In this document: positions 1 to 63,881 of the stretch, in pieces
How the letters are laid out: the number at the start of each line of letters is the position of its first letter
How positions within the stretch are numbered: the first letter of the stretch is position 1
Source: an uncultured Eubacteriales bacterium
Lineage (GTDB): Bacteria; Bacillota; Clostridia; Oscillospirales; UBA644
Length of the DNA: 64,000 nucleotides
NCBI GenBank assembly: GCA_934501435.1
Contig: CAKSTW010000003.1
Location: forward strand, 67,842-131,841
Direction of reading: 5' to 3'
Made by a program: the position numbers and the translations under genes
The notes under the pieces: model-generated
What the model was told of the DNA's origin: nothing
Databases searched by the model: none
What the model saw: only the letters and a program-made list of their open reading frames with translations

Positions 1-809
1 AGCATTGCGAGCTTGTCGGGCTTTGTTTTTGCAAGCCCGTCGACAATATCGAATGCGAAATTGAATTTCTCGGTGTTTTTGAATTTTATCTCGGTCGGAG
101 TTCCGTTTTCGTCCTCTTTGACGTCGATAAACTTCTTATATATTCTGTCCTCACTGTCTTTATAGGGAGACGAGGTGTCGGAAACCGCTTTCGGAACGGA
201 AAATTCGGGAATGGGTTCGCCTGTCGGGTTTAAGACTATCGCATAGAAAATACAGTCTTTGCCGTTGACGGCTATCATTCCGTGAGGAGTCGAACTGTCG
301 TAATAAATGCTGTCGCCGGGACCGAGAACTTCTTTATGCTCGCCGACCTGAACCATGAGGTTGCCCTCGATAACGAGGTCGCATTCCTGACCTGCGTGGG
401 TGGTGAGTTCGATATCCTTATGCTGCGCTTCTTCCGAATACTCGCTTTTAACGTAAAGAGGCTCGGCTATCCTGTTCTGAAAGGCGTAGGCAAGGTTATA
501 ATAAACCATTCCGTGGGCTTTTGCTATTTCCTGTCCCGCGCCAGAACGGGTCACGGTGTAGGATTTCAGCGTCGGGCTGTAACCTTCGATAATGTCGGTA
601 ACGTTTACCGAAAGCGCAAGCGCGCAGCGATAGATAAACGCGAAATTGAGGTCGCTTTTGCCTTCTTCGCAGCGAAGATATTCCTCCGTGGTGACGTCGG
701 TTTTTTCCGCCATCTGTTCGGGAGAAATACCTTCGATCTCGCGAAGAGCTCTTATTCTTCCCGCCATCTCCTTGATCTTGTAGTCAAGAGCAGTAATAGT
801 AGTATTCAT
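1..809 (-). CDS. HTH(XRE)-cupin-AMP-dependent acyl-CoA synthetase paralog, N-terminal part (3' end lies outside the window)
   Basis: The ORF runs off the left edge, so it is absent from the ORF track. My minus-strand translation starts at ATG 809, with SD AGGAGGAAG upstream. It gives MNTTITALDYKIKEMAGRIRALREIEGISPEQMAEKTDVTTEEYLRCEEGKSDLNFAFIYRCALALSV...GDSIYYDSSTPHGMIAVNGKDCIFYAIVL...FNFAFDIVDGLAKTKPDKLAML. This is colinear with the N-terminus of the 1177..3444 product. Confidence 0.8.
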   Translation of the reverse strand, partial: MNTTITALDYKIKEMAGRIRALREIEGISPEQMAEKTDVTTEEYLRCEEGKSDLNFAFIYRCALALSVNVTDIIEGYSPTLKSYTVTRSGAGQEIAKAHGMVYYNLAYAFQNRIAEPLYVKSEYSEEAQHKDIELTTHAGQECDLVIEGNLMVQVGEHKEVLGPGDSIYYDSSTPHGMIAVNGKDCIFYAIVLNPTGEPIPEFSVPKAVSDTSSPYKDSEDRIYKKFIDVKEDENGTPTEIKFKNTEKFNFAFDIVDGLAKTKPDKLAM

Positions 810-834: not shown

Positions 835-1115
835 GTAAAAAAGAACACCCGTCCCAAAGTATGTAGAACTTTGAGACGAGTGTTAAAATACACCCGCGGT
901 ACCACTCAAATTGCAGTATAAAAACTGCCTCTTATCGAAGTCAGACAACTTCTATGCATTAACGCAGCAATCACGGAGAGGGTCTACTCGTAAAAACTTT
1001 CTTCCTCCCGACTCGGAAGCTACAGGTATAAAAGTCGTACCAACGGCTCGCACCAACCGCCGTCTCTCTTTAAGCCGTACTCAAATACCACTCTTCGTCA
1101 ACGTCTTTTTATTTG
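835..1115 (-). promoter_or_regulatory. T-box riboswitch leader B (apparent specifier GUA, Val)
   Basis: All elements are on the minus strand. K-turn GACGAAG.../...CUUCCGAGUC. AGAGAGA box. Distal loop GGUUGGUGCGAGCC. T-box sequence AAUUUGAGUGGUACCGCGGGUG at 891-912. Terminator arms AACACUCGUCUCAAAG / CUUUGGGACGGGUGUU followed by a U-run (836-886). GUA plus purine G lies directly 5' of the CUUC helix (1020-1023). Confidence 0.85.
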
Positions 1116-1120
1116 AGAGT

Positions 1121-1149
1121 ATTCTACCATATCTTAGGAGTTATGTCAA
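1121..1149 (-). promoter_or_regulatory. sigmaA-type promoter for T-box leader B
   Basis: Minus strand TTGACA (1144-1149), 17 nt spacer, TGgTAGAAT (-10 at 1121-1126). Confidence 0.6.
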
Positions 1150-1176
1150 CTGTTTTTTTTCAAAATTTCTGTGACA

Positions 1177-3444
1177 TCAAAGTTTGTTTCTCTGGATCTT
1201 TCCGCTTATAGTCTTCGGAAGTTCGTCCTTAAAGACGACTATACGCGGATATTTGTAAGGCGCAGTATTTTCCTTGACGTACTGCTGAATTTCCTTCTTG
1301 AGTTCTTCGGTAGGCTCGGTCCCTTTTACAAGCACTATGCTCGCCTTAACGACCTGACCTCTTACTTCGTCGGGGGCTGCGGAAACTCCGCATTCGAGGA
1401 CGTAAGGAAGTTCCATTATGACGCTTTCTATTTCGAAAGGCCCTATACGGTAGCCCGAAGACTTGATAACGTCGTCGACGCGTCCGACATACCAGTAAAA
1501 TCCGTCTTCATCGCGCCATGCGGTGTCTCCGGTATGGTAAAGTCCGTCGTGCATGACTTCCGCGGTCTTCTCGGCATTTCTGTAATAGCCCGCAAACAGT
1601 CCGCAGGGACGTTTTTTGTCGATACGGACGACTATCTCGCCGACTTCGCCGTCGGGAACGGGATTTCCGTCCGGATCAACGATGTCGATATCGTAAAGAG
1701 GAACGGGACGTCCCATGGAACCGACTTTATGACTTCTGCCCATAAGGTTTGCAATGGCAAGGGTAAGTTCGGTCTGACCGAAGCCCTCCATTATACTTAA
1801 ACCCGTCGCCTTTTTGAATTGACGGTAAACTTCGGGGTTAAGCGCTTCTCCCGCGGTCGTCATGTGTTTTATCGACGAAAGGTCGTATTTTGAGATATCT
1901 TCCTTTATCATCATGCGGAGCATTGTCGGGGGCGCGCAGAAAGTCGTGATATGATATTTCGCGAACATCGGAAGAATATCCGCGGCGGAAAAACGGTCGA
2001 AATCGTAAGTGAAGACCGCGCCTTCGCAGAGCCACTGTCCGTAGAGTTTGCCCCACAGTGCTTTTCCCCAGCCGGTGTCGGAGATAGTAAAGTGAAGTCC
2101 GTCGTCAGAAACGCCGTGCCAGTATTTCGCGGTGATATAATGTCCGAGCGGATATTTATATGTATGAGCGGCGATCTTCGGATAGCCCGTCGTTCCCGAA
2201 GTGAAGAACATAAGCATTAAATCGTCTCCGCAGGGAGCGTCTTCGGGGCGGTGATAATGAGCGGAATAAAGCGGAAATTCCTCGTTGAAATTTCTCCAGC
2301 CTTCGCGGCTGCCGCCGACCATGAGTTTATTTTTGAGGGACGGACAGTCCGCCGCCGCAAGATCAACCTGATGAGCAACGTCTCCGTCTGCGGTACAGAT
2401 TATGGTGGAGACTTCCGCGGCGTTAAAGCGATATTCTATATCGTGTTTCTGCAGCTGATAGGTTGCCGGAATTGCTATAGCTCCGAGCTTATGCAGGGCG
2501 ATTATCGCATACCAGAACTGATAGTGTCTTTTTAAAATAAGCATTACTCTGTCGCCTCTTTTTATTCCGAGGCTCTTGAAGTAGTTTACGCACTGGTTGC
2601 TTCCCCTCTTCATGTCGTTAAAGGTAAAGCGACGTTCGGTTTTATCTTTTGCGACATGGATCATCGCAAGTTTATCGGGATTTTTCGCGGCGATTGCGTC
2701 AACGACGTCGAAAGCAAAATTGAATTTGTCTTCGTTTTTGAAATCGATCGTTTCGAGACTTCCGTTTTTGTCTTCGGTCGTTATGATAAACTTTTCGCTG
2801 ACCATTTCCTTTTTCGGAATATGGAGCGGCGGCATTGTTTCGTGAACGACTTCGTCTTCAACATCTTCGCCCGAAAGAACCATTGCAAGGAAAACGCAGT
2901 CTTCGCCGCCGACGGCTATCATTCCGTGAGGAGTCGAACTGTTATAGTAGATACTGTCGCCTTCTTCGAGATATTCAACGTGTTCGCCGACCTGAACTTT
3001 GAGTTTTCCGCTGACGACAAGGTCGAATTCCTGACCGTTATGCTTCGTTAAATGTATCGGCGCGTTCTGGAGTTTCTCGCTGTATTCGTAACGGACGTAA
3101 TACGGTTCGCCGAGTTTTTTGCGGAAGAGCGGCGCAAGGTTTCTTATTTCGATACCGTCTTCTTTCGCGGTCTGCTGTCCCTGTCCCTTACGGGTAACGG
3201 TATAGGAAGAAAGATGAGCGCTCTGACCTTCCATAAGGTCGGTTATTCCTATTCCGAACGCAAGCGAGCATTTATGAATAAAGGTAAACGGAAAATCCGC
3301 GTTTCCGCTTTCATAAAGGCGGTATTCTTCGGGGGTAACTTCCGTTTTTTCAGCCATAGTCTCTTCCGAGAAACCGCATATTTCGCGCATTTCTCTGATT
3401 CTGACGGCTATTTCTCTCAGTTTTTCACTTTCTGTTGTTGCCAT
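1177..3444 (-). CDS. HTH(XRE)-cupin-AMP-dependent acyl-CoA synthetase (ANL superfamily, medium-chain acyl-CoA synthetase-like)
   Basis: This is track ORF 1177..3531. The upstream part of that ORF is the T-box terminator, so the start is trimmed to ATG 3444 (MATTESEKLREIAVRIREMREICGFS), 6 nt after SD GAGGAGA. Motifs: XRE HTH; cupin GDSIYYNSSTPHGMIAV; adenylation FTSGTTGYPK, YHTGDTAWRDEDGFYWYVGRVDD, SGKIQRNKL. Confidence 0.9.
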   Translation of the reverse strand: MATTESEKLREIAVRIREMREICGFSEETMAEKTEVTPEEYRLYESGNADFPFTFIHKCSLAFGIGITDLMEGQSAHLSSYTVTRKGQGQQTAKEDGIEIRNLAPLFRKKLGEPYYVRYEYSEKLQNAPIHLTKHNGQEFDLVVSGKLKVQVGEHVEYLEEGDSIYYNSSTPHGMIAVGGEDCVFLAMVLSGEDVEDEVVHETMPPLHIPKKEMVSEKFIITTEDKNGSLETIDFKNEDKFNFAFDVVDAIAAKNPDKLAMIHVAKDKTERRFTFNDMKRGSNQCVNYFKSLGIKRGDRVMLILKRHYQFWYAIIALHKLGAIAIPATYQLQKHDIEYRFNAAEVSTIICTADGDVAHQVDLAAADCPSLKNKLMVGGSREGWRNFNEEFPLYSAHYHRPEDAPCGDDLMLMFFTSGTTGYPKIAAHTYKYPLGHYITAKYWHGVSDDGLHFTISDTGWGKALWGKLYGQWLCEGAVFTYDFDRFSAADILPMFAKYHITTFCAPPTMLRMMIKEDISKYDLSSIKHMTTAGEALNPEVYRQFKKATGLSIMEGFGQTELTLAIANLMGRSHKVGSMGRPVPLYDIDIVDPDGNPVPDGEVGEIVVRIDKKRPCGLFAGYYRNAEKTAEVMHDGLYHTGDTAWRDEDGFYWYVGRVDDVIKSSGYRIGPFEIESVIMELPYVLECGVSAAPDEVRGQVVKASIVLVKGTEPTEELKKEIQQYVKENTAPYKYPRIVVFKDELPKTISGKIQRNKL

Positions 3445-3464
3445 TTCCATTCTCCTCTTCAGAT

Positions 3465-3745
3465 AATAAAAAAACACACCTGTCTCAAATTTCTTTGAGA
3501 CGGGTGTGTGAAAATACACTCGCGGTACCACTCAAATTGCAGTATGAATACTGCCCCTCTTCGAAGTCAAACAACTTCTATGCACTGACGCGGCAATCAC
3601 GGGAAACACTACTTGCAAACGCTTTCGCATATTCCGGCTCGGAAGTGATGGGTTTAAGAAATTCAACTATCGGCTCTCAGCAAATACCGACTCTCTGTGA
3701 GTTTAGGTTCTGACCGTCTTCGTCGCAGCCTTTGTTATTTAATTT
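3465..3745 (-). promoter_or_regulatory. T-box riboswitch leader A (apparent specifier AUC, Ile)
   Basis: All elements are on the minus strand. K-turn GGCUGCGACGAAG.../...CUUCCGAGCC. ACAGAGAGU box. T-box sequence AAUUUGAGUGGUACCGCGAGUG at 3517-3538. Terminator CACACACCCGUCUCAAAG / UUUGAGACAGGUGUGU followed by a U-run (3468-3510). AUC plus purine A lies directly 5' of the CUUC helix (3646-3649). Confidence 0.85.
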
Positions 3746-3751
3746 AGTATT

Positions 3752-3780
3752 ATGATAGCAATTTTTTTTCGGTTTGTCAA
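3752..3780 (-). promoter_or_regulatory. sigmaA-type promoter for T-box leader A
   Basis: Minus strand TTGACA (3775-3780), 17 nt spacer, TGcTATCAT (-10 at 3752-3757). Confidence 0.6.
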
Positions 3781-3807
3781 GCGGTTATTTGTGAACTTTC
3801 CGAAACA

Positions 3808-5223
3808 TTATTTTTCGGCGGAAAGTTTTTCGTCGATAGCCTTTGCCGCGGTCTTGCCCGCGCCCATCGCAAGAATAACCGTTGCGGCTCCCGTTACGGC
3901 GTCGCCGCCCGCATATACGTTTTCTCTTGTCGTCTCCCCTGTTTCTTCGGTTACGGCAAGCCCTCCGCGCCTTGTCGTTTCAAGACCCGAAGTCGTCGAA
4001 CGGATAAGAGGGTTGGGGCTTGTCCCGACGGCGATTATCACGCAGTCGACGTCAAGCACGAATTCCGAACCCTCGACGGGAACGGGACGGCGTCTGCCTG
4101 AAGCGTCGGGTTCTCCGAGTTCCATTTTTATACATTTCATACCGACAACGGTTCCGTTTTTAATGTCGCGGCAATCGTCGGGATTATTATAACCGAGGAT
4201 CTCGGTCGGATTGCAAAGCAAACGGAAATCGACGCCCTCCTCCATTGCGTGCCCGACTTCTTCGCGGCGCGCGGGAAGTTCCTCCATACCGCGGCGATAG
4301 ACGATATACACTTTTTCGGCGCCGAGACGGAGAGAAGTTCTCGCGGCGTCCATCGCGACGTTTCCTCCTCCGACGACCGCAACTCTCTTTGCCCTGAAAA
4401 CGGGGGTTTTTGCATTTTCCCCGTATGCTTTCATAAGGTTTACGCGTGTTAAAAACTCGTTTGCGGAAAATACGCCTTTAAGGCTTTCGCCGGGGATATT
4501 CATAAAGTTCGGAAGACCCGCTCCGCTTCCTATAAAGACCGCCGAAAATCCCTTTTCAAAAAGTTCGTCTACGGTAAGGGTTTTTCCGATGATGACGTTC
4601 TTTTCTATTTTAACTCCGAGTTTTTCAAGAGTACTTACTTCTTTTTTGACTATCGACTTCGGGAGACGGAATTCGGGAATTCCGTAGACAAGAACGCCGC
4701 CCGCAAGGTGCAGCGCCTCGAAAACGGTCACGTCATATCCCTTTTTCGCAAGGTCTCCGGCGCAGGTAAGCCCCGAAGGGCCCGAACCGACAACGGCGAC
4801 TTTTTTGCCGTTTTTTTCGGGAACTTTTATTTCGGTCTCTTCTTTTGCGATTGCTCTGTCGGCGACAAATCTTTCAAGTCTGCCGATACCGACGGGTTCG
4901 CCCTTTATCCCTCTCACACATTTTGCTTCGCACTGGTTTTCCTGCGGACATACTCTTCCGCAAACGGCGGGAAGAGAGGACGATTCGGAAATAACGGCAT
5001 AAGCGCCGTCGTAATCTTTTTCCCTTATTTTTGCGATAAACGCGGGAATTCTGATATTTACGGGGCAGCCCGAAACGCAGGGCATATTTTTGCAGTTTAA
5101 GCAGCGGTCGGCTTCGAGAAGAGCGGTTTCTTCCGAATATCCGAGAGCGACTTCTTCAAAACAGCGTTTTCTTACTTCCGCAGAAAGGGACGGCATCGGA
5201 TTTTTCTTCGGTGAATTGTTCAT
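3808..5223 (-). CDS. nfnB: NADPH-dependent GltD-like FAD/Fe-S oxidoreductase (NfnB / SudA-type large subunit)
   Basis: 471 aa. N-terminal Cys clusters CLNCKNMPCVSGCP. Two Rossmann GxGxxG motifs (VAVVGSGPSGL, VAVVGGGNVAMD). Overlaps the upstream PyrK-like subunit gene by 4 nt. Confidence 0.75.
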   Translation of the reverse strand: MNNSPKKNPMPSLSAEVRKRCFEEVALGYSEETALLEADRCLNCKNMPCVSGCPVNIRIPAFIAKIREKDYDGAYAVISESSSLPAVCGRVCPQENQCEAKCVRGIKGEPVGIGRLERFVADRAIAKEETEIKVPEKNGKKVAVVGSGPSGLTCAGDLAKKGYDVTVFEALHLAGGVLVYGIPEFRLPKSIVKKEVSTLEKLGVKIEKNVIIGKTLTVDELFEKGFSAVFIGSGAGLPNFMNIPGESLKGVFSANEFLTRVNLMKAYGENAKTPVFRAKRVAVVGGGNVAMDAARTSLRLGAEKVYIVYRRGMEELPARREEVGHAMEEGVDFRLLCNPTEILGYNNPDDCRDIKNGTVVGMKCIKMELGEPDASGRRRPVPVEGSEFVLDVDCVIIAVGTSPNPLIRSTTSGLETTRRGGLAVTEETGETTRENVYAGGDAVTGAATVILAMGAGKTAAKAIDEKLSAEK

Positions 5224-6065
5224 TTCGTCGCCCCCTTAAAGAGATTACATTCTTTTTCATAAGCGTGTTTTTCGAAATCGCGGTAGATCGACGAACGGGA
5301 GATCGCTTCGTCGAAATCTACGGCGTATCCGTCGAATTCGGGGCCGTCGACGCAGGCGAAATGCGTTTTCCCGCCGACCGTAAGACGGCAGCCGCCGCAC
5401 ATACCCGTTCCGTCGATCATTATCGGGTTCATCGAAACAACAGTCGGCACTCCGAACGGGCGACAGGTCTCAACAACGAATTTCATCATGACGAGAGGAC
5501 CTATCGCGATCACTTTATCGTATTTTTTACCGCTTTCGAGCATTTCTTTAAGCGGTTCGGTAACAAGCCCTTTTCTTCCCGCTGTTCCGTCGTCGGTCAT
5601 TAAAGTAAAGGTATTCGACGACTTCTTGAATTCGTCTTCCAGAATAACAAGGTCTTTATTCCTGAAGCCGACGACAGCGTCGACCTCACAGCCTTTTGCA
5701 AAAAGTTTGCGCGCTATCGGAAGAGCGATAGCACAGCCGACGCCGCCGCCGACAACGCACACTCTTTCAAGTCCGTCGGTTTCGGTAGGTCTGCCGAGAG
5801 GACCCGAAAAATCTTCTATTTCCTCGCCCTCGTTTTTAAGGCTGAGTTCAAAAGTCGTTGCGCCGACCGTCTGGAAAATAATATTTACCGTACCTTTTTC
5901 TCTGTCAAAGCCGGCGACGGTAAGGGGAATTCTCTCTCCGTCGTCGGTCACTCTCAGGATTATGAACTGCCCCGCCTCGGCTTTTGCCGCGACATAAGGA
6001 GCAAGAATATCCATCTGAGTTACGGTATCGTTAAGTTTTCGTTTTGAAATTATTTTATAACCCAT
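5220..6065 (-). CDS. nfnA: PyrK/ferredoxin-NADP reductase-like FAD, 2Fe-2S subunit (NfnA / SudB-type)
   Basis: Track ORF 5220..6125, trimmed to ATG 6065 (MGYKIISKRKLNDT), which is preceded by SD GGAGAG. C-terminal CGGCRLTVGGKTHFACVDGPEF is a 2Fe-2S motif. Paired with the GltD-like gene. Confidence 0.75.
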   Translation of the reverse strand: MGYKIISKRKLNDTVTQMDILAPYVAAKAEAGQFIILRVTDDGERIPLTVAGFDREKGTVNIIFQTVGATTFELSLKNEGEEIEDFSGPLGRPTETDGLERVCVVGGGVGCAIALPIARKLFAKGCEVDAVVGFRNKDLVILEDEFKKSSNTFTLMTDDGTAGRKGLVTEPLKEMLESGKKYDKVIAIGPLVMMKFVVETCRPFGVPTVVSMNPIMIDGTGMCGGCRLTVGGKTHFACVDGPEFDGYAVDFDEAISRSSIYRDFEKHAYEKECNLFKGATK

Positions 6066-6164
6066 TTTTATCTCTCCGATTTCTTCATTACAGTTTATAA
6101 TATACCTTTTTATAAAAATAGTCAAGTCAAAATCACGGGTTTTCCCGTTTTATTCGGAAAGATG

Positions 6165-7586
6165 TTACCTGTTGACCATATAATTTTCCGTTATTTTCCT
6201 TACGGTCGGGGCAAGGAAAAAGAGTCCGACAAGGTTCGGAAGAGCCATAAGTCCGTTGAAAATATCCGAAATATCCCACGCCGCCCGCAGAGAGACCGCA
6301 GCCCCGATAACGGTAAACGAAACAAAGACAAAACGATAGACGGCAAAGGAAGAAACCCCGAAAATGTATTCGCATGCCTTTATCCCGTACTGCGACCAGC
6401 CGAGTAGTGTCGTAAAGGAAAAAAGAAGAGAGGAAACGGAAACGAATATTGCCGCCGCGTCGCCCATCGACGACGAAAAAGCCGAAACGACGAGCGCCGT
6501 ACCCTCAAGAGACGAAAGACATCTGCCCGTTTCAAGGTCTATATTTCCCGAAACGAGAACGACGAGCGCGGTAAGGGTACAGATAACAAAAGTATCGGCA
6601 AAAACCTCGAAAATTCCCCACATTCCCTGACCGACAGGCTCTGAAACAGAGGAAGACGACGTCACCGTCACGGAAGAAGCAAGTCCCGCCTCGTTTGAAA
6701 AGACGCCCCTTTTTATACCCGTTTTTACGGTTTGGGAAATAAGAAAACCGACACCGCCGCCGCAGACGGGAAGAAAGCCGAAAGCCCCTTTGAAAACAGA
6801 AACAAACGCCGCGGGAAGAAGCGATATATGCGAAAAAATAATATAAAGACAGCCCGCAATATACATAATTGCCATACCGGGAACAAGCGCTTCCGTTATT
6901 TTGCCGACGCCCGAAAGCCCGCCCGACAGACAGACGTAAGTCACCGCGGCAAGCAAAAGCCCGACAACAAAACAGGGACTTAAAACTATCCCGAAAACGC
7001 TTTTCGGCAAAAGAGAAAAGAGAGAAACCGCCGTCACGGCAATATTGTTCGCCTGCACGGCGTTGCCTATTCCGAAAGAGGCGAAAATGCAGAAAAACGC
7101 AAATATAAAAGACAGGGGCTTTGCGATTCTGCAAACGCAGGGAACCGTCGAAAGCCCGTCCCGAAGATAATACATCGCGCCGCCCGAAAATTCACCTTTT
7201 TCGTTTTTACGGCGATAGTATATTCCGAGAACGTTTTCCGAAAATTTTGTCGCCATGCCGAAAAACGCGGCGACCCACATCCAGAAGACCGCCCCCGGTC
7301 CGCCTATACATACAGCCGACGCAACGCCCGTTATATTTCCCGTACCTACCGTTGCGGCAAGGGACGAACAAACCGCCCGAAACGGAGAAATAGCCCCTTT
7401 TTTATCGCATTTTTTTGCTTTTCCAACTGAAAACAGCGTTTCTTTAAGCCAAAGAGAACATTTCGTAAACTGAAAAAATTTCAACTTAAAAGAAAGAAAA
7501 ACGCCCGCCCCCAGAATCAGAATAAGGGACGGCGTTCCCCAGACGATATCGGAAATGAAAGAAACGGCGCCGGACAGAAAACGCAT
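6165..7586 (-). CDS. alanine/glycine:cation symporter (AGCS family)
   Basis: 473 aa polytopic membrane protein. Contains ISPFRAVCSSLAATVGTGNITGVA and FSNEAGLASS, which are typical of AGCS. It lies directly downstream of a glycine riboswitch. Confidence 0.85.
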   Translation of the reverse strand: MRFLSGAVSFISDIVWGTPSLILILGAGVFLSFKLKFFQFTKCSLWLKETLFSVGKAKKCDKKGAISPFRAVCSSLAATVGTGNITGVASAVCIGGPGAVFWMWVAAFFGMATKFSENVLGIYYRRKNEKGEFSGGAMYYLRDGLSTVPCVCRIAKPLSFIFAFFCIFASFGIGNAVQANNIAVTAVSLFSLLPKSVFGIVLSPCFVVGLLLAAVTYVCLSGGLSGVGKITEALVPGMAIMYIAGCLYIIFSHISLLPAAFVSVFKGAFGFLPVCGGGVGFLISQTVKTGIKRGVFSNEAGLASSVTVTSSSSVSEPVGQGMWGIFEVFADTFVICTLTALVVLVSGNIDLETGRCLSSLEGTALVVSAFSSSMGDAAAIFVSVSSLLFSFTTLLGWSQYGIKACEYIFGVSSFAVYRFVFVSFTVIGAAVSLRAAWDISDIFNGLMALPNLVGLFFLAPTVRKITENYMVNR

Positions 7587-7659: not shown

Positions 7660-7815
7660 AAAAGGAATGTTCTCCGTCCTTTTGCCTGAGAGATTGCAAA
7701 GCTTACACCTTCGGCACCCGCAAGGGTTTCTCCGGAGTTTCGTCCACCGTCAGTCTTTATCTTTCGACGCCTGAGAGTTTTACTCCTTCGGCAGGCAACG
7801 CCTTTTCCTGACGAC
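7660..7815 (-). promoter_or_regulatory. tandem glycine riboswitch
   Basis: Two aptamers on the minus strand. Aptamer 1 is GGAAAAGGCGUUGCCUGCCGAAGGAGUAAAACUCUCAGGCGUCGAAAGAUAAAGAC. Aptamer 2 is GGACGAAACUCCGGAGAAACCCUUGCGGGUGCCGAAGGUGUAAGCUUUGCAAUCUCUCAGGCAAAAGGACGGAG. Family hallmarks present are CCGAAGG and CUCUCAGGCAAAAGGAC. Confidence 0.85.
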
Positions 7816-15843: not shown

Positions 15844-17496
15844 TTATTCAACCGGTTTATAGCTGCCTTTAAGACCGACAGTAAGATTAAAGACGTTGTC
15901 GTCCTTTGAGTCTTTGCAGAAATAGCCGGTGCGGACAAACTGGAATTTATCGCCCGCTTTCGCCTCGGCAAGAGACGGCTCTGTTTTCGCGTCTTTATAG
16001 ACGGTGAGAGAATCGGGGTCAACATAGTCCATATACGATTTGTCTTCGGGGATATCGAAAACGTTTTCAAGAGTAAACATTCTGCCGTACTCTCTTATTT
16101 CGGTATCCTTTGCGTAATCTGCGGAAAGCCAATGAACGGTTCCTTTTATCTTTCTTCCGTCGGCAGGGTTTCCGTTGCCCGTTTCAAGGTCGCAGGTGCA
16201 GAGAAGTTCGGTAACGTTTCCGTTTTCGTCCTTTATAACGTCTTCGCATTTAAGGATATACGAACCCATAAGTCTGACTTCCCCGCCCGGTTTTAAGCGG
16301 TGGAACTTCGGCGGCGGAACTTCCGCAAAATCGTCTCTTTCGATATAGAGATTTTTTGTGAACGGAACTTTTCTTTTGCCCGCGTTTTCGTCCTGCGGGT
16401 TATTTTGCAGTTCGAAATATTCGGTTTTTCCGTCGGGATAGTTTGTCACGGTGACTTTAAGAGGTTTAAGCACCGCAACTCTTCTCGGAGCGACGGCGTT
16501 CTGTTCTTCTCTTATACAATGTTCGAGAAGTCCTATATCAACGATACTGTACGCTTTTGCAACGCCCGCGCGCTTAACGAATTCGATTATCGACGTCGGA
16601 GTGTAGCCTCTTCTGCGAAGTCCGCAGAGAGTCGGCATACGGGGGTCGTCCCAGCCGTCGACCTTGCCCGTTTCGACAAGTTCGCGCAGAAAACGCTTGC
16701 TCATTACGGTATAGGTAAGGTTGAGTCTTGCGAATTCGTACTGATGCGGTTTTTTCTCAAAACCGATATTGTCGACTACCCAGTTATAAAGGGGTCTGTG
16801 GTTTTCAAATTCGATAGAGCAAAGCGAATGGGTAATTCCCTCCAATGCGTCCTGAATGGGGTGCGCAAAGTCGTAAAGGGGGTAAATGCACCATTTGTTG
16901 CCCTGTCTGTGGTGAGAAGTATGGAGAATACGGTAAATTGCGGGGTCTCTCATATTCATATTCGGCGAAGACATATCAATTTTTGCACGGAGAGTATGGG
17001 TCCCGTCCGCAAATTCGCCGTTTTTCATTCTTTCGAAAAGATCGAGATTTTCTTCGACCGAACGGTTTCTGTAAGGGCTTTCCTTACCCGGTTCGGTAAG
17101 GGTTCCGCGGTATTCTCTCATTTCGTCGGCTGAAAGGTCGCAGACGTACGCCTTGCCGTCTTTTATGAGTTTTACGGCGTATTCGTAGCATTTATCGAAA
17201 TAGTCGGAACCGTAATATATTCCGCCGTTAGGCTCTGCCCCGAGCCAACGAAGGTCTTCTTCGATGGAACGGACGTATTCGTCGTCTTCCTTGACGGGGT
17301 TCGTATCGTCATAACGGAGATTGAAAAGTCCGCCGTATTTCTGCGCCGTGCCCGCGTTTATCCATATAGCCTTCGCACTGCCGATATGGAGATATCCGTT
17401 CGGTTCGGGCGGAAAACGGGTGTGAATTTTCTCGACTCTGCCCTCCGCAAGGTCCTTATCTATAATGTCGTGTATGAAGTTGGAGGTGTTTTCCAT
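15844..17496 (-). CDS. glnS: glutaminyl-tRNA synthetase
   Basis: RFPPEPNGYLHIGSAKAI (HIGH motif), VMSKR (KMSKS motif), and a C-terminal anticodon-binding beta-barrel region. Confidence 0.9.
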   Translation of the reverse strand: MENTSNFIHDIIDKDLAEGRVEKIHTRFPPEPNGYLHIGSAKAIWINAGTAQKYGGLFNLRYDDTNPVKEDDEYVRSIEEDLRWLGAEPNGGIYYGSDYFDKCYEYAVKLIKDGKAYVCDLSADEMREYRGTLTEPGKESPYRNRSVEENLDLFERMKNGEFADGTHTLRAKIDMSSPNMNMRDPAIYRILHTSHHRQGNKWCIYPLYDFAHPIQDALEGITHSLCSIEFENHRPLYNWVVDNIGFEKKPHQYEFARLNLTYTVMSKRFLRELVETGKVDGWDDPRMPTLCGLRRRGYTPTSIIEFVKRAGVAKAYSIVDIGLLEHCIREEQNAVAPRRVAVLKPLKVTVTNYPDGKTEYFELQNNPQDENAGKRKVPFTKNLYIERDDFAEVPPPKFHRLKPGGEVRLMGSYILKCEDVIKDENGNVTELLCTCDLETGNGNPADGRKIKGTVHWLSADYAKDTEIREYGRMFTLENVFDIPEDKSYMDYVDPDSLTVYKDAKTEPSLAEAKAGDKFQFVRTGYFCKDSKDDNVFNLTVGLKGSYKPVE

Positions 17497-17497
17497 A

Positions 17498-19162
17498 TTA
17501 TTTTCCGCCTTCCGAAATTGATTTGCAAGCCGCTTTTATTCTTTCGTCAACTTTCTTTGCACCGAGAATTTTCATGACGGCGTAAGTATCGGGAGAAACC
17601 GTTTTACCCGTGACCGCGATACGGAGAACCATTGCGATATCCGCGACGCTTCCCTTGAAGTTTTCGGGATTTTTCTTGTATTCTTTCATATCTGCGGCGT
17701 ATCCGAGAGAGGAAGCGAGTTCCTTTATCTTATTGAACCAGACGTCCTGTTCGTCGTTTTCGTCGTAAATTTCGGGATATTTTTCAAGAATAACAACGGC
17801 GTCTTCTGCCGAAATATTTTCGGGCAGAGAATGAGCCGGAACGAAATATTTATCGTAGAAAAAGCCCATGTAGTCCTTGACGCCGCTCCAGACCGCGATA
17901 TCTTTACGGGGCTTTTTGCCACCTCTGCCGATCGCGAGAATTTCTTTTGCGTAATCGGGTGCGGCTTTGAGTTCGGAGGCGAATTCGGGGTCGTATTCCT
18001 CCGCCCATTTTTCAACATCGTCAAAGACTTCTTCGGCGGTCATCCTCGAAATGACGTTCTTTGAAATATCGAGAACTTTATCCATATCGAAAAGAGCGCC
18101 CGATGAACTCATTTTATTGACGGAGAATTTGAATTCTTCGTAGTTTTTATCGGGGTTCTGAAGTCGCCATTCCTCGAAATTCGAGTTGAGAATGGTTAAA
18201 AGATATTCGATAATGGCTTTCGGAGAAAAGCCCTCTTTATTGTAATATTCAATTCCGAATTCGGGATCTTTGCGTTTCGAAAGTTTGCGTTTGCCCTCGC
18301 CGTCCTGCTTTAACATGTGGGCGGTATGTATGAATTTCGGAGGTTTCCAGCCGATATATTCGAAAAGCTGGAGATGCCACGGGAAAGTCGAAAGCCATTC
18401 TTCGCCGCGGACGACATGGGTCGTTCTCATGAAATGGTCGTCGACGACGTGCGCAAAATGATAAGTCGGGATACCGTCCGATTTGAGAAGAACGATATCG
18501 GCGTTGTTTTCGGGGAATTCAAGTTCGCCTTTGATAAGGTCGCGAGCCTTTACCGTTTTTTCGGGATTTCCGACCGAACGGAGACGGAGAACGTAGGGTT
18601 TTCCCTCTTTAACATACCGTTCGACGGTCTCGTAAGGCAGATCCCTGTATTTTGCCCATTTGCCGTAGTAGCCGGGGTTTTCGCCCGCCGCCGCCTGCGC
18701 GTTTCTTATTTCCTCAAGTTCTTCTTCGGTGCAGAAGCAGGGGTACGCAAGACCTCTTTCGACAAGATTTTTCGCGACGATATGATAGATTTCCGCTCTT
18801 TCCTGCTGACGGTAAGGCCCGTAGTCGCCGAACCCGCCGTCTTCGGTATACCCCTCGTCAAAAGTAAGACCGTAGCGTTTGAAGGTGTCGATTATGAGTT
18901 CGACCGCGCCGTCGACCTTTCTTTTCTGGTCGGTATCCTCTATACGGAGATAGAAAACGCCGCCGCTCTGATGAGCAAGACGCTCATCGACAAGCGCCCC
19001 GAAAAGGTTTCCGATATGGATAAATCCCGTCGGGCTGGGGGCTATTCTTGTTACTTTCGCGCCCTCCGGCAAATTTCTCGGAGGATATTTTTTTTCAAGA
19101 TCGTCAACCGTTTCGGTAACGTCGCCGAATAGAAGTTCGGCTGTTTTTTTTGAGTCGGTCAT
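17498..19162 (-). CDS. gltX: glutamyl-tRNA synthetase
   Basis: RIAPSPTGFIHIGNLFGAL (HIGH motif) and KLSKRK (KMSKS motif). 554 aa. Confidence 0.9.
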   Translation of the reverse strand: MTDSKKTAELLFGDVTETVDDLEKKYPPRNLPEGAKVTRIAPSPTGFIHIGNLFGALVDERLAHQSGGVFYLRIEDTDQKRKVDGAVELIIDTFKRYGLTFDEGYTEDGGFGDYGPYRQQERAEIYHIVAKNLVERGLAYPCFCTEEELEEIRNAQAAAGENPGYYGKWAKYRDLPYETVERYVKEGKPYVLRLRSVGNPEKTVKARDLIKGELEFPENNADIVLLKSDGIPTYHFAHVVDDHFMRTTHVVRGEEWLSTFPWHLQLFEYIGWKPPKFIHTAHMLKQDGEGKRKLSKRKDPEFGIEYYNKEGFSPKAIIEYLLTILNSNFEEWRLQNPDKNYEEFKFSVNKMSSSGALFDMDKVLDISKNVISRMTAEEVFDDVEKWAEEYDPEFASELKAAPDYAKEILAIGRGGKKPRKDIAVWSGVKDYMGFFYDKYFVPAHSLPENISAEDAVVILEKYPEIYDENDEQDVWFNKIKELASSLGYAADMKEYKKNPENFKGSVADIAMVLRIAVTGKTVSPDTYAVMKILGAKKVDERIKAACKSISEGGK

Positions 19163-22019: not shown

Positions 22020-23129
22020 TCATAACTTATTATCGGCTTTATTAACGATTTTATTCCCGTTTTTTTTCAGTTTTATTTCCGCGGTTATCCACATTATAAC
22101 GGGGAAAAACTGCAGCGCCGCCGCGATATGAACATAACCGCCGAGAAATTTCGGAAGTTCGATTATATTCGGAAACAGAAGTTCGGAAATTACGGCGACG
22201 GCAAGCGAAACAAAAAAGATAACAAGCGTCTTTTTTTTCTTCCCGGAAAAGGAAAAACAGGTTTTTATCCCGAGAGACGAAATATAAACGGACAGACTTC
22301 CTTTCAAAATCCCCGCTGTAAAAAACAGAGCGGACGCGATTATTTCGAGCCTTCGCACGACCCCTATCTCGATAAGGGACACCGCGGCGTAGGTCGGATA
22401 GAAAAGTTTTGTCATCGTCGGAACGCCGAGAGAAAGAATGTTGTTAAGCGCCGCCGCGACCATCAGAACAAGAGAAAAAGCAAAGACCGCAAAATATACT
22501 TTTTTCCGCTCTCCTTTTTCTGCCTTCACTCCGAGATTCATAAGGACCATTGCCTCCGTCGCCGGGAAAACAAGGTTGACGTAAGCGTTACGGAAAAGTT
22601 TCTGCGGGTCGTCGACCGTAAAAGGTTCGAGATTGTTGAAATTCCAGATATTAAAAGAACAGACGAAAAAGACGATAAGCACAGCGGCGAAAACGGGCAG
22701 GAAAAGAGCCGAAAACTTCGCGATGACTTCAAGCCCGTGGACGGCAACGTAAAAGCAGACGAATACGCAGACGGCTATAATAAATATCCGCGGCGTCCTG
22801 TCAAGAGAGACTATCCCCGTGAATTCGGAGATATTCCGAACGGCGATCGCCGCGGCAATGACGTAATAAAGAGTATAAACGGCGGACAAACTTCTGCCGA
22901 AAGTTTTCCCGAATATCTCCGACAGCATTCCGAAAATGTTTTTTTCGGGATATATCCCGGAAAGTCTTGCGTAAATAAAATAAAACGGCGCTGCGGCGGC
23001 AAAAGAAATCATATATGAAAGCCAGAGGCTTCTGCCCGCGACGGAATACCCCGAAAGAATGGGAATACCGCTTACGACAAAAAGCGCGGAAATACAGATC
23101 GCCTGTTTTTTTGATATTTTTTCTTCCAT
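22020..23129 (-). CDS. spore germination protein, GerAB/GerKB family (APC-like permease)
   Basis: 369 aa with about 10 TM segments. N-terminal KISKKQAICISALFVVSG is typical of GerxB. It is the last gene of an A-C-B germination operon. Confidence 0.8.
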   Translation of the reverse strand: MEEKISKKQAICISALFVVSGIPILSGYSVAGRSLWLSYMISFAAAAPFYFIYARLSGIYPEKNIFGMLSEIFGKTFGRSLSAVYTLYYVIAAAIAVRNISEFTGIVSLDRTPRIFIIAVCVFVCFYVAVHGLEVIAKFSALFLPVFAAVLIVFFVCSFNIWNFNNLEPFTVDDPQKLFRNAYVNLVFPATEAMVLMNLGVKAEKGERKKVYFAVFAFSLVLMVAAALNNILSLGVPTMTKLFYPTYAAVSLIEIGVVRRLEIIASALFFTAGILKGSLSVYISSLGIKTCFSFSGKKKKTLVIFFVSLAVAVISELLFPNIIELPKFLGGYVHIAAALQFFPVIMWITAEIKLKKNGNKIVNKADNKL

Positions 23130-23133
23130 ACCG

Positions 23134-24243
23134 TCACCTGTCCGAAACCGCGTTTTGCGGAGTTCTGCCCGAGTCGATTATTTCGCATTCGCATACGATC
23201 TCAAGCGACGCCGCGCTGAAAACGTCCCGCCAGCCGTCTTTGATATTTTCCCATTCCGACGGCATTTTCCGATATATCATATTACCGAAAGCAAAGACGT
23301 CGCTGCGGAAATTCCGTTTTATTTCATCAAACGTTTCCGACAGTTCTTCTTCAATCGCTCTTTCCGTTTCTTTCTGAAGATATTCTTTGCATTTCGGATC
23401 GGAAAGGTCGCAATTTTCGGGAAGCTGCCGCGCCGCCGCCTTTATCTTCACTTTTGTTTCAAACGCAGCCGGATAAGTTTCGATCCTGCTTTCAGTCGAA
23501 ATATCACGGATCTCGAAAGAAACGTATTCCCCGCCGACGGAAAGCGTCATATCCCCGCCCGCAAGTTTTCCCATCAGAGTCAGATAGCGTCTTGCCTTTT
23601 CGGAAGAAATGTTTCCGACCGCTCTGTCGTCCCTGAAAACAGTCATTCCCGAATAAAAAATTTCTTTATCGTTTATCGAAAGTCTCGGTAATATCAGGTC
23701 TTTTCCTTTATTTTCAAGAGTGTTCAGACAGGCGTAAGCCTGCGCCGACGGGTAGACTGCCGACCCGGGGTTATCCTGCTTCATCATATCGAATATCCCG
23801 TAGGAAACGATATCGTAAAGCGGCAGTTCGCAGTCAAAAACGGTCGAAGAAAGTCCGCCTCCGACAGTAACGAAAAGAACCGTAAGCCGCAGAGTATTGT
23901 AGTGAAAAACCATATCCAGGATTTCCGATATCCCGTTTTCCGCAGTCTTTTCGCCGACAAAAATAACCTGACAATGACTGAAATCAAAAGGTTTTCCGCT
24001 TGCATTTTTAAGTCCTTCCATCGCTTCGAAAACGGTCTTTCCCTCGGAAAAGACGGTTTCCGATTTTACCGACGCCTCGGAAGACGAACCGGGGGCTATT
24101 GTTTCGGCGACGACGGAATATCCGTTTTCGTTTTTGTCAAGCGCCATGCCCGCAACAACGACGACGTCCTCGACATCCGCGTAATTGTAACATCCCGTAA
24201 ATGTTAAAAGTACGAATATCAGCGCAAAAATCACTTTTTTCAT
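23134..24243 (-). CDS. spore germination lipoprotein, Ger(x)C family
   Basis: Track ORF trimmed to MKKVIFALIFVLLTFTGC (lipobox LTFTGC) at 24243. This overlaps the GerxA stop as ATGA. Confidence 0.8.
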   Translation of the reverse strand: MKKVIFALIFVLLTFTGCYNYADVEDVVVVAGMALDKNENGYSVVAETIAPGSSSEASVKSETVFSEGKTVFEAMEGLKNASGKPFDFSHCQVIFVGEKTAENGISEILDMVFHYNTLRLTVLFVTVGGGLSSTVFDCELPLYDIVSYGIFDMMKQDNPGSAVYPSAQAYACLNTLENKGKDLILPRLSINDKEIFYSGMTVFRDDRAVGNISSEKARRYLTLMGKLAGGDMTLSVGGEYVSFEIRDISTESRIETYPAAFETKVKIKAAARQLPENCDLSDPKCKEYLQKETERAIEEELSETFDEIKRNFRSDVFAFGNMIYRKMPSEWENIKDGWRDVFSAASLEIVCECEIIDSGRTPQNAVSDR

Positions 24244-25844
24244 TTTGTTCTGCCCGCTTTTTGTCTGTATTTCTGCGCGGTGATATCCTCGGGAAAAGTG
24301 ACCATCGCCCACCACGGCGCGCGGACTATATAATCCTTGTTTTTAAGAGGGGTCGAGAAGGGACTGTATGAGAAATAATCCGTGCCGAAACTTTTGAGAG
24401 AGAAAAGGTGCGCGGTCATAATAAATGAGGCGAGAAGAAAACCGTAAGCGCCGAGGACCGACGAAAACGCAAGAAACAGGAGCCTGTAAAACAGTATCGA
24501 ATTTTTGGTATTCTGAACCATAAGCCCCGCAAGGCAGGAAACGGCAACCGCAATAAGCATCGGCGCGCTTGTATACCGCGCGGAAATGGCGGCGTCTCCC
24601 AAGACAAGCGCCCCGACGATACTCAAAGGCTGACCGATGCTTTCGGGGACCCTGAGCGCCGTCTCCCTTAAAATTTCAAATGCGAAAAGGAGCGCCGAAC
24701 ATTCTATTATCGACGGGAACGGAACGCCCTGTCTTGCGGAAATAAAGGACATTACAAGTTCGGTCGGCAGCATATAACTGTGAAAGGCGATAAGCGCGAC
24801 GAAAAGCCCCGGAAGAGAAACCGCCATAAAATAGCAGACTATACGCAATATCCTCATAAACGAGGCGTAAAACGAACTTGTATAATAGTCGTCAGCCGCC
24901 TGAAAACTTTCAACGGCAAGATAAGGGACGGTTATGACCGACGGACAGCCGTTTACAATTACCGCAATTCTCCCCTCCGCTATTTTTGCGGCGGCGGTAT
25001 CGGGACGTTCGGTGTCTCCGACGGTGCGGAAACTGCTCAGGGGGCTGTCTGAAATGAATTCTTCGAGATAATTGCTGTCGAGAACAGCGTCGATATCAAT
25101 ATTTTCAAGCCTTTCGTAAAGAAGAGAAAGCGCCTTTTTATTCACGACCGACGCAAGATAGCAGACCGCCGTTTTAGTGTTGCTGCGTCTGCCGAAAGAA
25201 AAAAAACGCACCTTGAGATCTGGAGTGCGGAGTTTTCGCCGCAGCAGCGAAAGATTTACCATAATATCTTCGACAAACCCCTCGCGCGGACCTTTGAGCG
25301 CCTTTTCGGTATACGGTTCCTCGACGGAACGGCGGCTGTAATTTTTCGTGTCGGCGACAAGCGCGTTTTCCGTTCCGTCGATAAAGATTACCGTATCCCC
25401 CGAAAGGACAGCCGTCACTATTTCCGAAAATTTGTTTTCGGTCGAAATATCGCCGCCGTATATCGCTTTTTCAAGCGTTTTTTCGGCGGTGAACGCTTTC
25501 GGAAAGTCTTCGGGATAAGTCATCAGAGGCTTTATGAACTGCTCGGAAACGGCGTCGGTATTCGACATTCCGTCAAGGAAAAACGCCGCGCATTTCACAT
25601 TGTTGCGGAAAGCAAAAAACCGCCGTGAAATTATCATCGGGTCATTTTCGAAAAGGTCCGATATATATTTGAAGTTTTTTTCAATATCACTGAAGACAAC
25701 GGGTTCGTCCCCGTTTTTTTCAAGTTCTTTTTCCGATATATAATAAGGTTTTTCGGGAATACCGTCGTTTTTCGGAATAAGTTTTTTCAGGCGGAGAAAA
25801 GCGTTCCCCTTTTCGTCTATTTTCTGTTTTTTCACATAATTCAC
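24240..25844 (-). CDS. spore germination protein, GerAA/GerKA family
   Basis: 534 aa. The soluble N-terminal domain plus the C-terminal TM region (PLSIVGALVLGDAAISA) are typical of GerxA. Confidence 0.8.
   Translation of the reverse strand: MNYVKKQKIDEKGNAFLRLKKLIPKNDGIPEKPYYISEKELEKNGDEPVVFSDIEKNFKYISDLFENDPMIISRRFFAFRNNVKCAAFFLDGMSNTDAVSEQFIKPLMTYPEDFPKAFTAEKTLEKAIYGGDISTENKFSEIVTAVLSGDTVIFIDGTENALVADTKNYSRRSVEEPYTEKALKGPREGFVEDIMVNLSLLRRKLRTPDLKVRFFSFGRRSNTKTAVCYLASVVNKKALSLLYERLENIDIDAVLDSNYLEEFISDSPLSSFRTVGDTERPDTAAAKIAEGRIAVIVNGCPSVITVPYLAVESFQAADDYYTSSFYASFMRILRIVCYFMAVSLPGLFVALIAFHSYMLPTELVMSFISARQGVPFPSIIECSALLFAFEILRETALRVPESIGQPLSIVGALVLGDAAISARYTSAPMLIAVAVSCLAGLMVQNTKNSILFYRLLFLAFSSVLGAYGFLLASFIMTAHLFSLKSFGTDYFSYSPFSTPLKNKDYIVRAPWWAMVTFPEDITAQKYRQKAGRTK

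Positions 25845-61402: not shown

Positions 61403-63881
<2,479 letters not shown>

Follow-up and report, generated by a model that had tools for sequence, protein, structure and literature searches.

Tandem T-box leaders with isoleucine and valine specifiers precede paralogous acyl-CoA synthetase genes in gut Oscillospirales

The stretch of DNA analysed here (the window; 64,000 nt of contig CAKSTW010000003.1, from an uncultured Eubacteriales bacterium) carries on its minus strand two acyl-CoA synthetase genes, A and B, each of which lies behind its own T-box leader. Both leaders are confirmed as T-box riboswitches; leader A presents an isoleucine codon (AUC) as its specifier and leader B a valine codon (GUA). 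We consider it probable that they are tandem transcription-attenuating T-boxes for Ile and Val, each gating a synthetase for a branched-chain acid, and that the Val leader heads a salvage operon in which a 2-oxoacid:ferredoxin oxidoreductase (VOR) and the aminotransferase IlvE are also encoded. The operon behind leader B very probably turns 2-methylbutyrate and isobutyrate back into Ile and Val. The finding is far beyond chance: homologous leaders stand ahead of the orthologous genes in nearly every one of the 80 related genomes.

The window was scanned by cmscan, and leader A by a local scan, with Rfam model RF00230, for which the gathering threshold is 93 bits; the features of both transcription units are collected in Table 1. 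An earlier, first-pass annotation of this DNA had listed for each leader a promoter of its own, a kink-turn (K-turn), an AGAGA box, the T-box sequence and a terminator, and every one of these elements was found. Leader A is a clear homologue of leader B, with 86% of alignment columns common to both; the two are near-identical from Stem II on, and their differences lie mostly in Stem I. In both leaders the 5' arm of the terminator is the 3' arm of the antiterminator. Minimum-free-energy folds of both Stem I regions give a lower helix (GAAG/CUUC), a 3' loop strand of 5 nt (C-AUC-A in leader A, U-GUA-G in leader B) and a GGU/ACC helix above it, and so reproduce the loop that had first been drawn. 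The UGA/GA motif is aligned by Rfam in both leaders, and the AGAGA and distal-loop consensus sequences are present. Promoter B begins 28 nt past the stop codon of gene A with no terminator in between, so that gene A transcripts run into the Val terminator. Orthologous leaders have an equivalent TTGACA promoter about 30 nt ahead of the T-box.

Table 1. Features of the two T-box transcription units, in window coordinates.
Feature	Position	Strand	Details
Promoter of leader A, TTGACA-17-TATCAT with TG extension	3752..3780	-	11/12 matches
T-box leader A (Stem I, Stem II, IIA/B, extra hairpin, Stem III, antiterminator)	3493..3735	-	RF00230 87.6 bits, E 8e-20; R1 153 bits
GACGAAG, K-turn of leader A	3724-3718	-	
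AGAGA box of leader A	3696-3692	-	
Specifier AUC (Ile) at 3649-3647, then A at 3646	3646..3649	-	Rfam model positions 91-94
CUUCCGAG, leader A	3645-3638	-	
T-box sequence AAUUUGAGUGGUACCGCG with UGGU bulge (pairs with A73-C-C-A), leader A	3521..3538	-	
Intrinsic terminator of leader A (hairpin 3474-3509 and U run)	3464..3509	-	-25.1 kcal/mol, z -4.6
Gene A, HTH-cupin domain fused to MACS-type AMP-forming acyl-CoA synthetase	1177..3450	-	757 aa; Ile class; Gly462 after DTGW
HTH-cupin domain of A	2731-3450	-	N-terminal, about 235 aa
Promoter of leader B, TTGACA-17-TAGAAT with TG	1121..1149	-	11/12 matches
T-box leader B	869..1110	-	RF00230 100.6 bits, over the 93-bit threshold, E 5e-21
GACGAAG, K-turn of leader B	1099-1093	-	
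AGAGA box of leader B	1069-1065	-	
Specifier GUA (Val) at 1023-1021, then purine G at 1020	1020..1023	-	Rfam alignment
CUUCCGAG, leader B	1019-1012	-	
T-box sequence AAUUUGAGUGGUACCGCG with UGGU bulge, leader B	895..912	-	
Intrinsic terminator of leader B (17-bp stem 844-884 and U run)	836..884	-	-28.9 kcal/mol, z -4.7
Gene B, 5' part, paralogous HTH-cupin acyl-CoA synthetase	1..809	-	269/763 codons; Val class; start at 809, cut by left window end
HTH-cupin domain of B	90-809	-	N-terminal, about 235 aa

Relatives of the system were collected by a pattern scan of 185,579 species genomes, which yielded >589 of them, and the best 80 (67-82% identity) were analysed. These are species-level Oscillospirales, all of them metagenome-assembled genomes from human, ruminant, bird and mouse guts; most carry the labels Acutalibacteraceae, Oscillospiraceae, Ruminococcus, Christensenellaceae or Faecousia, or broader ones (Clostridia, Eubacteriales). 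A covariance model, R1, built from leader B with a hand-checked structure, was searched against the 80 loci and the window and matched 147 T-boxes. The class of the downstream enzyme was determined independently, by BLASTP classification of the first long open reading frame after each leader. An exact-protein look-up gave access to a 22-kb stretch of the same contig (locus L001) that runs past the left end of the window; the contig also turned up in metagenomes of the human gut (Hadza and other).

The RF00230 alignment places specifier positions 91-93, with position 94 after them, on AUC-A in leader A and GUA-G in leader B, directly 5' of the CUUC strand; these are the bases that the first-pass annotation had read as Ile and Val specifiers. 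Taking the four bases 5' of the lower helix in the 80 loci and the window, we found AUC in 69 leaders (next base A in 40 and C in 29), GUA in 46 (G in 40, A in 6), GUC in six (G in 5, A in 1), CUC in 14 (G in 9, A in 3, C in 2) and CUG in eight (G in 4, A in 2, C in 2). The protein encoded downstream is A-type for 69/69 AUC leaders, B-type for 52/52 leaders with GUA or GUC, and LeuA-like for every leader with CUC or CUG. Leader identity within a class averages 68-69% (minimum 53-56%), and the flanking loop bases vary while the codon columns are invariant. The exchange of GUA for GUC is synonymous and the next base in Val-class leaders is always a purine, which fixes the register for these related leaders. 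Two more distant clusters have AUC-A followed by GUC-G (59% protein identity) and AUC-A ahead of two tandem fusions (42%). A specifier in another loop or register is rejected on the covariance-model alignment and the co-variation of codon and paralogue. UGGU is present in all leaders of all specifier classes; tRNA-Ile, tRNA-Val and tRNA-Leu carry A73, which the bulge fits, as had been proposed for the two window leaders, and tRNA-Ser usually carries G73.

Covariation among orthologous leaders, suggested in the first-pass annotation as a check, is extensive. Across the 147 leaders 94.3% of cells are paired and 50 of the 54 pairs show changes on both sides; as this alignment is fitted to the R1 model, the more telling figure comes from the control with slid partners, in which pairing falls to 37-47%. 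Helices 1, 2 and 11 are 97-100% paired with compensatory changes, and compensatory variation is heavy in Stem I. Two leaders of the set stand apart. In one locus (L050:8325-8573) the T-box directly ahead of P-loop, ferredoxin and VOR genes has a specifier that is hard to call (GCA-U or UGC-A), and in another (L022:8325-8580) a Val T-box precedes a 213-aa stand-alone HTH (helix-turn-helix)-cupin open reading frame that takes the place of a full B gene.

In their general plan the leaders follow the T-box family (RF00230; for example Bacillus subtilis glyQS, tyrS and the ilv-leu Leu T-box), with which they share Stem I with its basal K-turn, AG bulge and distal loop, a specifier that abuts the lower helix on the 5' side, Stem II, IIA/B and Stem III, a T-box sequence of 14 nt that includes a UGGN bulge, and an antiterminator in competition with a terminator. 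They differ from it in a compact specifier loop such as the related leaders in general have (5' strand of 2-3 nt, AC or AGU; 3' strand of only 5 nt), in an extra hairpin between IIA/B and Stem III, in the C that follows the codon in 42% of Ile-class orthologues, and in their targets, which are acyl-CoA synthetases and a VOR-IlvE operon rather than aminoacyl-tRNA synthetase, classical biosynthesis or transport genes.

The proteins encoded behind the two leaders are, as first annotated, paralogous AMP-forming acyl-CoA synthetases: they have AMP-binding domains and are 68% identical at full length (763 aa for B). Gene A matches the Pfam domains HTH_19, Cupin_2, AMP-binding and AMP-binding_C, and the first 269 residues of gene B show the same HTH-cupin architecture. 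The best NCBIfam model for both is MbcS (NF047394; 430.8 bits for A and 430.1 bits for B), with acetate-CoA ligase models second. The best match in the Protein Data Bank (PDB), 3etc (E 3.5e-185), spans residues 239-755, that is, the whole catalytic domain. This structure is MacsMa of Methanosarcina acetivorans, an acyl-CoA synthetase of the medium-chain type (MACS) for which 2-methylbutyrate is the preferred substrate (PMC10455477); Staphylococcus aureus MbcS accepts 2-methylbutyrate and isobutyrate as substrates, works poorly with isovalerate and has no activity towards acetate (PMC10026030). In our motif alignment both synthetases have Gly (GFGQTE) where Acs has the Trp that limits it to acetate, a replacement that has been reported for medium-chain enzymes (PMC10455477), and the alternate pocket Trp of MacsMa is conserved (AKYW). 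The window enzymes share with MacsMa the catalytic domain end to end, the Trp of the YW motif, Gly at the position of Acs Trp416 and, in the A class, Gly after DxGW; they differ in the added N-terminal HTH-cupin domain and in the Ala that follows the Trp in the B class, and their substrates are predicted ones. MbcS is the top NCBIfam model; it feeds fatty-acid synthesis, lacks an HTH-cupin domain and has no reported T-box control.

We compared 67 A-type and 41 B-type full-length orthologues for residues at least 90% conserved within a class and differing between classes. Only six positions were found, of which one lies in the catalytic domain: position 462, directly after the Trp of DTGW, is Gly in the Ile class and Ala in the Val class. 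The equivalent residue is Gly in MacsMa and either Ala or Ile in members of the family that act on other substrates. By motif alignment, position 462 would correspond to the acyl-pocket residue Val310 of Salmonella enterica Acs and Ile312 of M. thermautotrophicus Acs, a numbering that reportedly goes back to Ingram-Smith et al. in 2006. The Acs pocket residue numbers are absent from PMC3438747. Judged from the alignments, the Gly/Ala switch at 462 is a likely determinant of C5 versus C4 preference, the model predicting the smaller residue for the C5 acid and the larger for the C4 acid; we infer that A-type synthetases activate 2-methylbutyrate and B-type synthetases isobutyrate.

The genes that follow B lie in L001, beyond the window. 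They encode a P-loop protein (223 aa, CbiA/Mrp-like), a ferredoxin (68 aa, 2x[4Fe-4S]), three VOR subunits, an Aminotran_4 protein, a LeuA-like protein and an AP_endonuc_2/AMP-binding fusion, which would be a third acyl-CoA synthetase. From gene B through the aminotransferase the intergenic gaps are <=16 nt; the LeuA-like gene begins 38 nt after the aminotransferase and the fusion gene a few nt later. The VOR alpha subunit passes the VorB model (3-methyl-2-oxobutanoate dehydrogenase, NF005507; 542 vs 399 bits) and the aminotransferase passes the IlvE model (NF009897; 486 vs 307 bits); the beta, gamma, delta-like subunits are under their own cut-offs but are clear family members. Leaders A and B are the only T-boxes on the 22-kb stretch, and gene A is monocistronic in this genome.

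Among the relatives the layout recurs as three units: a Leu T-box with leuA-like and AP_endonuc_2-synthetase genes; an Ile T-box with the A synthetase; and a Val T-box with the B synthetase, P-loop protein, ferredoxin, VOR and IlvE. The order from B synthetase to IlvE is kept in most loci with flanks long enough to show it. In about 15 genomes that lack a B gene, an Ile T-box and the A synthetase stand directly ahead of the P-loop protein, ferredoxin, VOR and IlvE genes, and a few genomes have the Val unit alone. This synteny indicates that a T-box-gated synthetase, VOR and IlvE form a conserved core. The first-pass annotation had proposed that the synthetases serve reductive carboxylation of branched acids; the ferredoxin/VOR/IlvE operon, its conserved synteny and nearest characterised homologues that prefer 2-methylbutyrate or isobutyrate all point the same way, and we regard this reading as well supported by the gene content.

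The P-loop gene (L001:14945-15616, just past the left window end) lies between synthetase and ferredoxin-VOR in nearly every locus long enough, and in a few loci IlvE stands between it and the synthetase. Its product has weak N-terminal similarity to the Mrp/ApbC carriers of Fe-S clusters and may be a maturation factor. The Leu-specifier T-boxes (CUC/CUG) are followed by the LeuA-like gene and then the fusion gene, as in L074:5301-5537 on the minus strand; they occur in loci L024, L025, L036-L038, L046, L048, L049, L051, L052, L056, L057, L063, L064, L066, L069, L070, L072, L074, L080 and L082-L084. The fusion resembles PRK12583 and scores 692 bits, under the cut-off of 832. In the genome of the window the LeuA-like and fusion genes follow ilvE (L001:19303-22274) and have no T-box. 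The Leu T-box unit possibly adds a third arm, for isovalerate and Leu, to this system.

That anaerobes of the rumen and gut require or exploit isobutyrate, 2-methylbutyrate and isovalerate as sources of Val, Ile and Leu has been known for some sixty years, and the classical physiology of this reductive carboxylation to branched-chain amino acids is said to be the work of Allison, Bryant and others. To our knowledge that work assigned neither genes nor regulation to the route, and in Clostridia neither has been pinned down. The cluster described here resembles the route in encoding synthetase, ferredoxin, VOR and IlvE together and in being carried by gut and rumen Oscillospirales; it differs in that an RNA specifier ties synthetases of predicted substrate specificity to the amino acid.

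The mechanism that we propose would run as follows. By default the terminator would fold in each leader and the gene would be off. Under starvation, the anticodon of uncharged tRNA-Ile(GAU) would pair with AUC in leader A, and that of uncharged tRNA-Val(UAC) with GUA in leader B, within the compact Stem I loop; the free A73-CCA end would then pair with the UGGU bulge, stabilise the antiterminator and let RNA polymerase read on. Leader A would thereby release a single gene, for the MACS-type AMP-forming synthetase, and leader B its paralogue together with the P-loop protein, the 2x[4Fe-4S] ferredoxin, the three-subunit VOR and IlvE. The branched acid would be activated to its acyl-CoA, reductively carboxylated to the 2-oxoacid by VOR with the ferredoxin of the operon, and transaminated by IlvE to Ile or Val, so that starvation for a branched-chain amino acid would switch on salvage of the matching fermentation acid. 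Induction by a T-box on starvation suits a route that makes the amino acid and not one that breaks it down, and an AMP-forming ligase likewise argues for the synthetic direction.

Several observations weigh against this reading. In the window's genome VOR and IlvE lie only behind the Val T-box, so that with only Ile in short supply the A enzyme would be made with no evident partner, barring read-through, basal expression or a further copy of VOR. Leader A scores below the RF00230 gathering threshold (87.6 against 93 bits), although its E value is 8e-20. The S-turn (loop E; AGUA on the 5' strand and GAA on the 3' strand) is missing from the specifier loop, and 29 of the 69 Ile-class leaders have C rather than the conserved purine after AUC; leader A itself has A, and all Val-class leaders have a purine after the codon. 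The 64-kb window contains no tRNA genes, and hence no A73 or anticodon partners for the leaders. Both enzymes fall below the MbcS equivalog cut-off (430 vs 850 bits), which makes them relatives rather than equivalogs, and the assignment of Gly/Ala 462 to the acyl pocket of Acs is a tentative one, made by motif alignment. Finally, the response to tRNA, the substrates, the direction of VOR and of the flux, and the role of the HTH-cupin domain are deduced from sequence.

Three other explanations were considered, all of which we judge less likely than salvage of branched acids under T-box control. The T-boxes might act as described and the synthetases supply branched acyl-CoA primers for membrane fatty acids when Ile and Val, the usual primer sources, are short. 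MbcS, the best NCBIfam model for both enzymes, has exactly such a role (PMC10026030), and the monocistronic gene A, with no VOR behind the Ile T-box in this genome, would suit it. However, the B-type gene shares its operon with ferredoxin, VOR and IlvE, as does the A-type gene in about 15 genomes; VOR and IlvE are needed for amino acids and not for primers, and there are no fab genes in the cluster. We therefore think a lipid role unlikely.

The cluster might instead be catabolic or generic, with IlvE and VOR working oxidatively from branched-chain amino acids to acyl-CoA and the synthetases acting on acetate, propionate or butyrate. VOR can run either way, MACS-type enzymes form adenylates from widely varied acids (PMC10455477) and acetate-CoA ligase models come second in NCBIfam; but a T-box would then induce the genes on starvation for the very amino acid being degraded, an AMP-forming synthetase conserves no energy in the catabolic direction, the Trp that gates for acetate is replaced by Gly, and the strict coupling of codon and paralogue together with the Gly/Ala switch argues for two distinct branched substrates, all of which makes this explanation highly improbable. 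Least credible, and scarcely to be entertained, is a misread register in leader A, with a Ser codon (UCA/UCC) abutting the helix or the triplet elsewhere in Stem I: the A or C that follows AUC among orthologues would be a synonymous third position of Ser UCN and the loop is non-canonical and without an S-turn, but the same 5-nt strand in B leaders reads GUA or GUC plus a purine and so fixes the register, the Rfam alignment agrees with AUC, UGGU matches A73 (Ile, Val, Leu) but does not suit the G73 that tRNA-Ser usually has, and the metabolic context is branched-chain.

The RNA that emerges from this analysis belongs to a known family with a known mechanism; the regulon, of acyl-CoA synthetases with predicted substrate specificity and VOR-IlvE, is new, and further novelty lies in the compact specifier loop, in the fusion to an HTH-cupin domain and in a modular design for Ile and Val (and Leu in relatives). 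The HTH-cupin fusion and the missing S-turn are features that the first-pass annotation did not include. Full-text literature searches found no report tying T-boxes to acyl-CoA synthetases or ligases, VOR, isobutyrate or reductive carboxylation. The specifier serves as a built-in label that, in some 80 species, assigns one paralogue of the synthetase to Ile and its counterpart to Val and links both to the VOR-IlvE operon. It thus offers testable gene-function assignments for cross-feeding on the acids of protein fermentation in the human and ruminant gut, and would extend the T-box regulon from aminoacyl-tRNA synthetases, de novo biosynthesis and transport to the salvage of fermentation products.

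The N-terminal HTH-cupin domain is common to both enzymes. Cupin_2 is over its gathering score (45.7 vs 27.2 bits), and HTH_19 (26-29 vs 30 bits) and HTH_3 (22.4 vs 23) are just under theirs; a sequence search of the PDB with this N-terminal domain found no relative. Five of the six class-specific residues lie in the domain (K60R, E97A, I100M, I102Y and Y117L), which hints at a paralogue-specific ligand. In locus L092 (769-3113) an unfused synthetase homologue (50% identity) that has no T-box is directly preceded by a separate 187-aa HTH-cupin gene; this split version suggests that the domain derives from a dedicated regulator. No T-box was found at unfused homologues in three loci (L090-L092), a sample too small to generalise from. 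As a candidate operator for the HTH domain the promoter regions offered only A/T-rich quasi-palindromes, T(5-7)-C/G-A(5-7), which many Ile and Val leaders have just upstream of the -35 box (window about 1150-1170); these tracts might equally well serve as UP elements.

A more elaborate and rather doubtful proposal is that the HTH-cupin domain is a paralogue-specific sensor (of Ile versus Val, the matching acid or the acyl-adenylate), which would make the synthetase both enzyme and regulator through allosteric feedback or BirA-like repression. T-box and protein would then form an AND gate, in which the T-box reports starvation for the amino acid and the fused domain the availability of substrate or product; with the Leu T-box and third synthetase of relatives, the whole would be a three-channel, RNA-addressed salvage system for branched-chain amino acids. 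The comparison with BirA-type ligase/repressors is an analogy only: both are adenylate-forming enzymes with an N-terminal helix-turn-helix, but the folds are unrelated (XRE-HTH and cupin against winged helix and biotin ligase) and DNA binding by the domain described here is hypothetical.

Upstream of gene A, a perfect 9-bp inverted repeat (AACTTTCCG / CGGAAAGTT, window 3794-3827) extends across the stop codon of an NfnB-like gene, just upstream of promoter A, and might serve as a terminator, albeit one lacking a U run, or as an operator. The NfnAB-like genes and a symporter gene (window 3808-7586, minus strand) follow a glycine riboswitch (RF00504, 51.5 bits; window 7664-7745, minus strand), which lies ahead of the Na:alanine-family symporter; a tandem-type RF03166 match was found in L001. 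This block is not kept beside the T-box cluster in other species: tblastn found no NfnA, NfnB or Na:Ala symporter within 6 kb of the cluster in 80/80 other loci. The initial suggestion that NfnAB supplies reductant was dropped accordingly, and given 0/80 other loci the adjacency is taken as species-specific.

Three aminoacyl-tRNA synthetase genes lie elsewhere in the window (15844-19162 and 61403-63361, both minus strand), two of class Ic Glu/Gln type and one of class IIb Lys/Asn/Asp type with tRNA_bind. None of them has an Rfam T-box match, and the only T-boxes of the window serve acyl-CoA synthetase genes. A GerA-type spore germination operon (GerA, GerAC and spore permease; window 22020-25844, minus strand) indicates that the host is a spore-forming member of the Clostridia.

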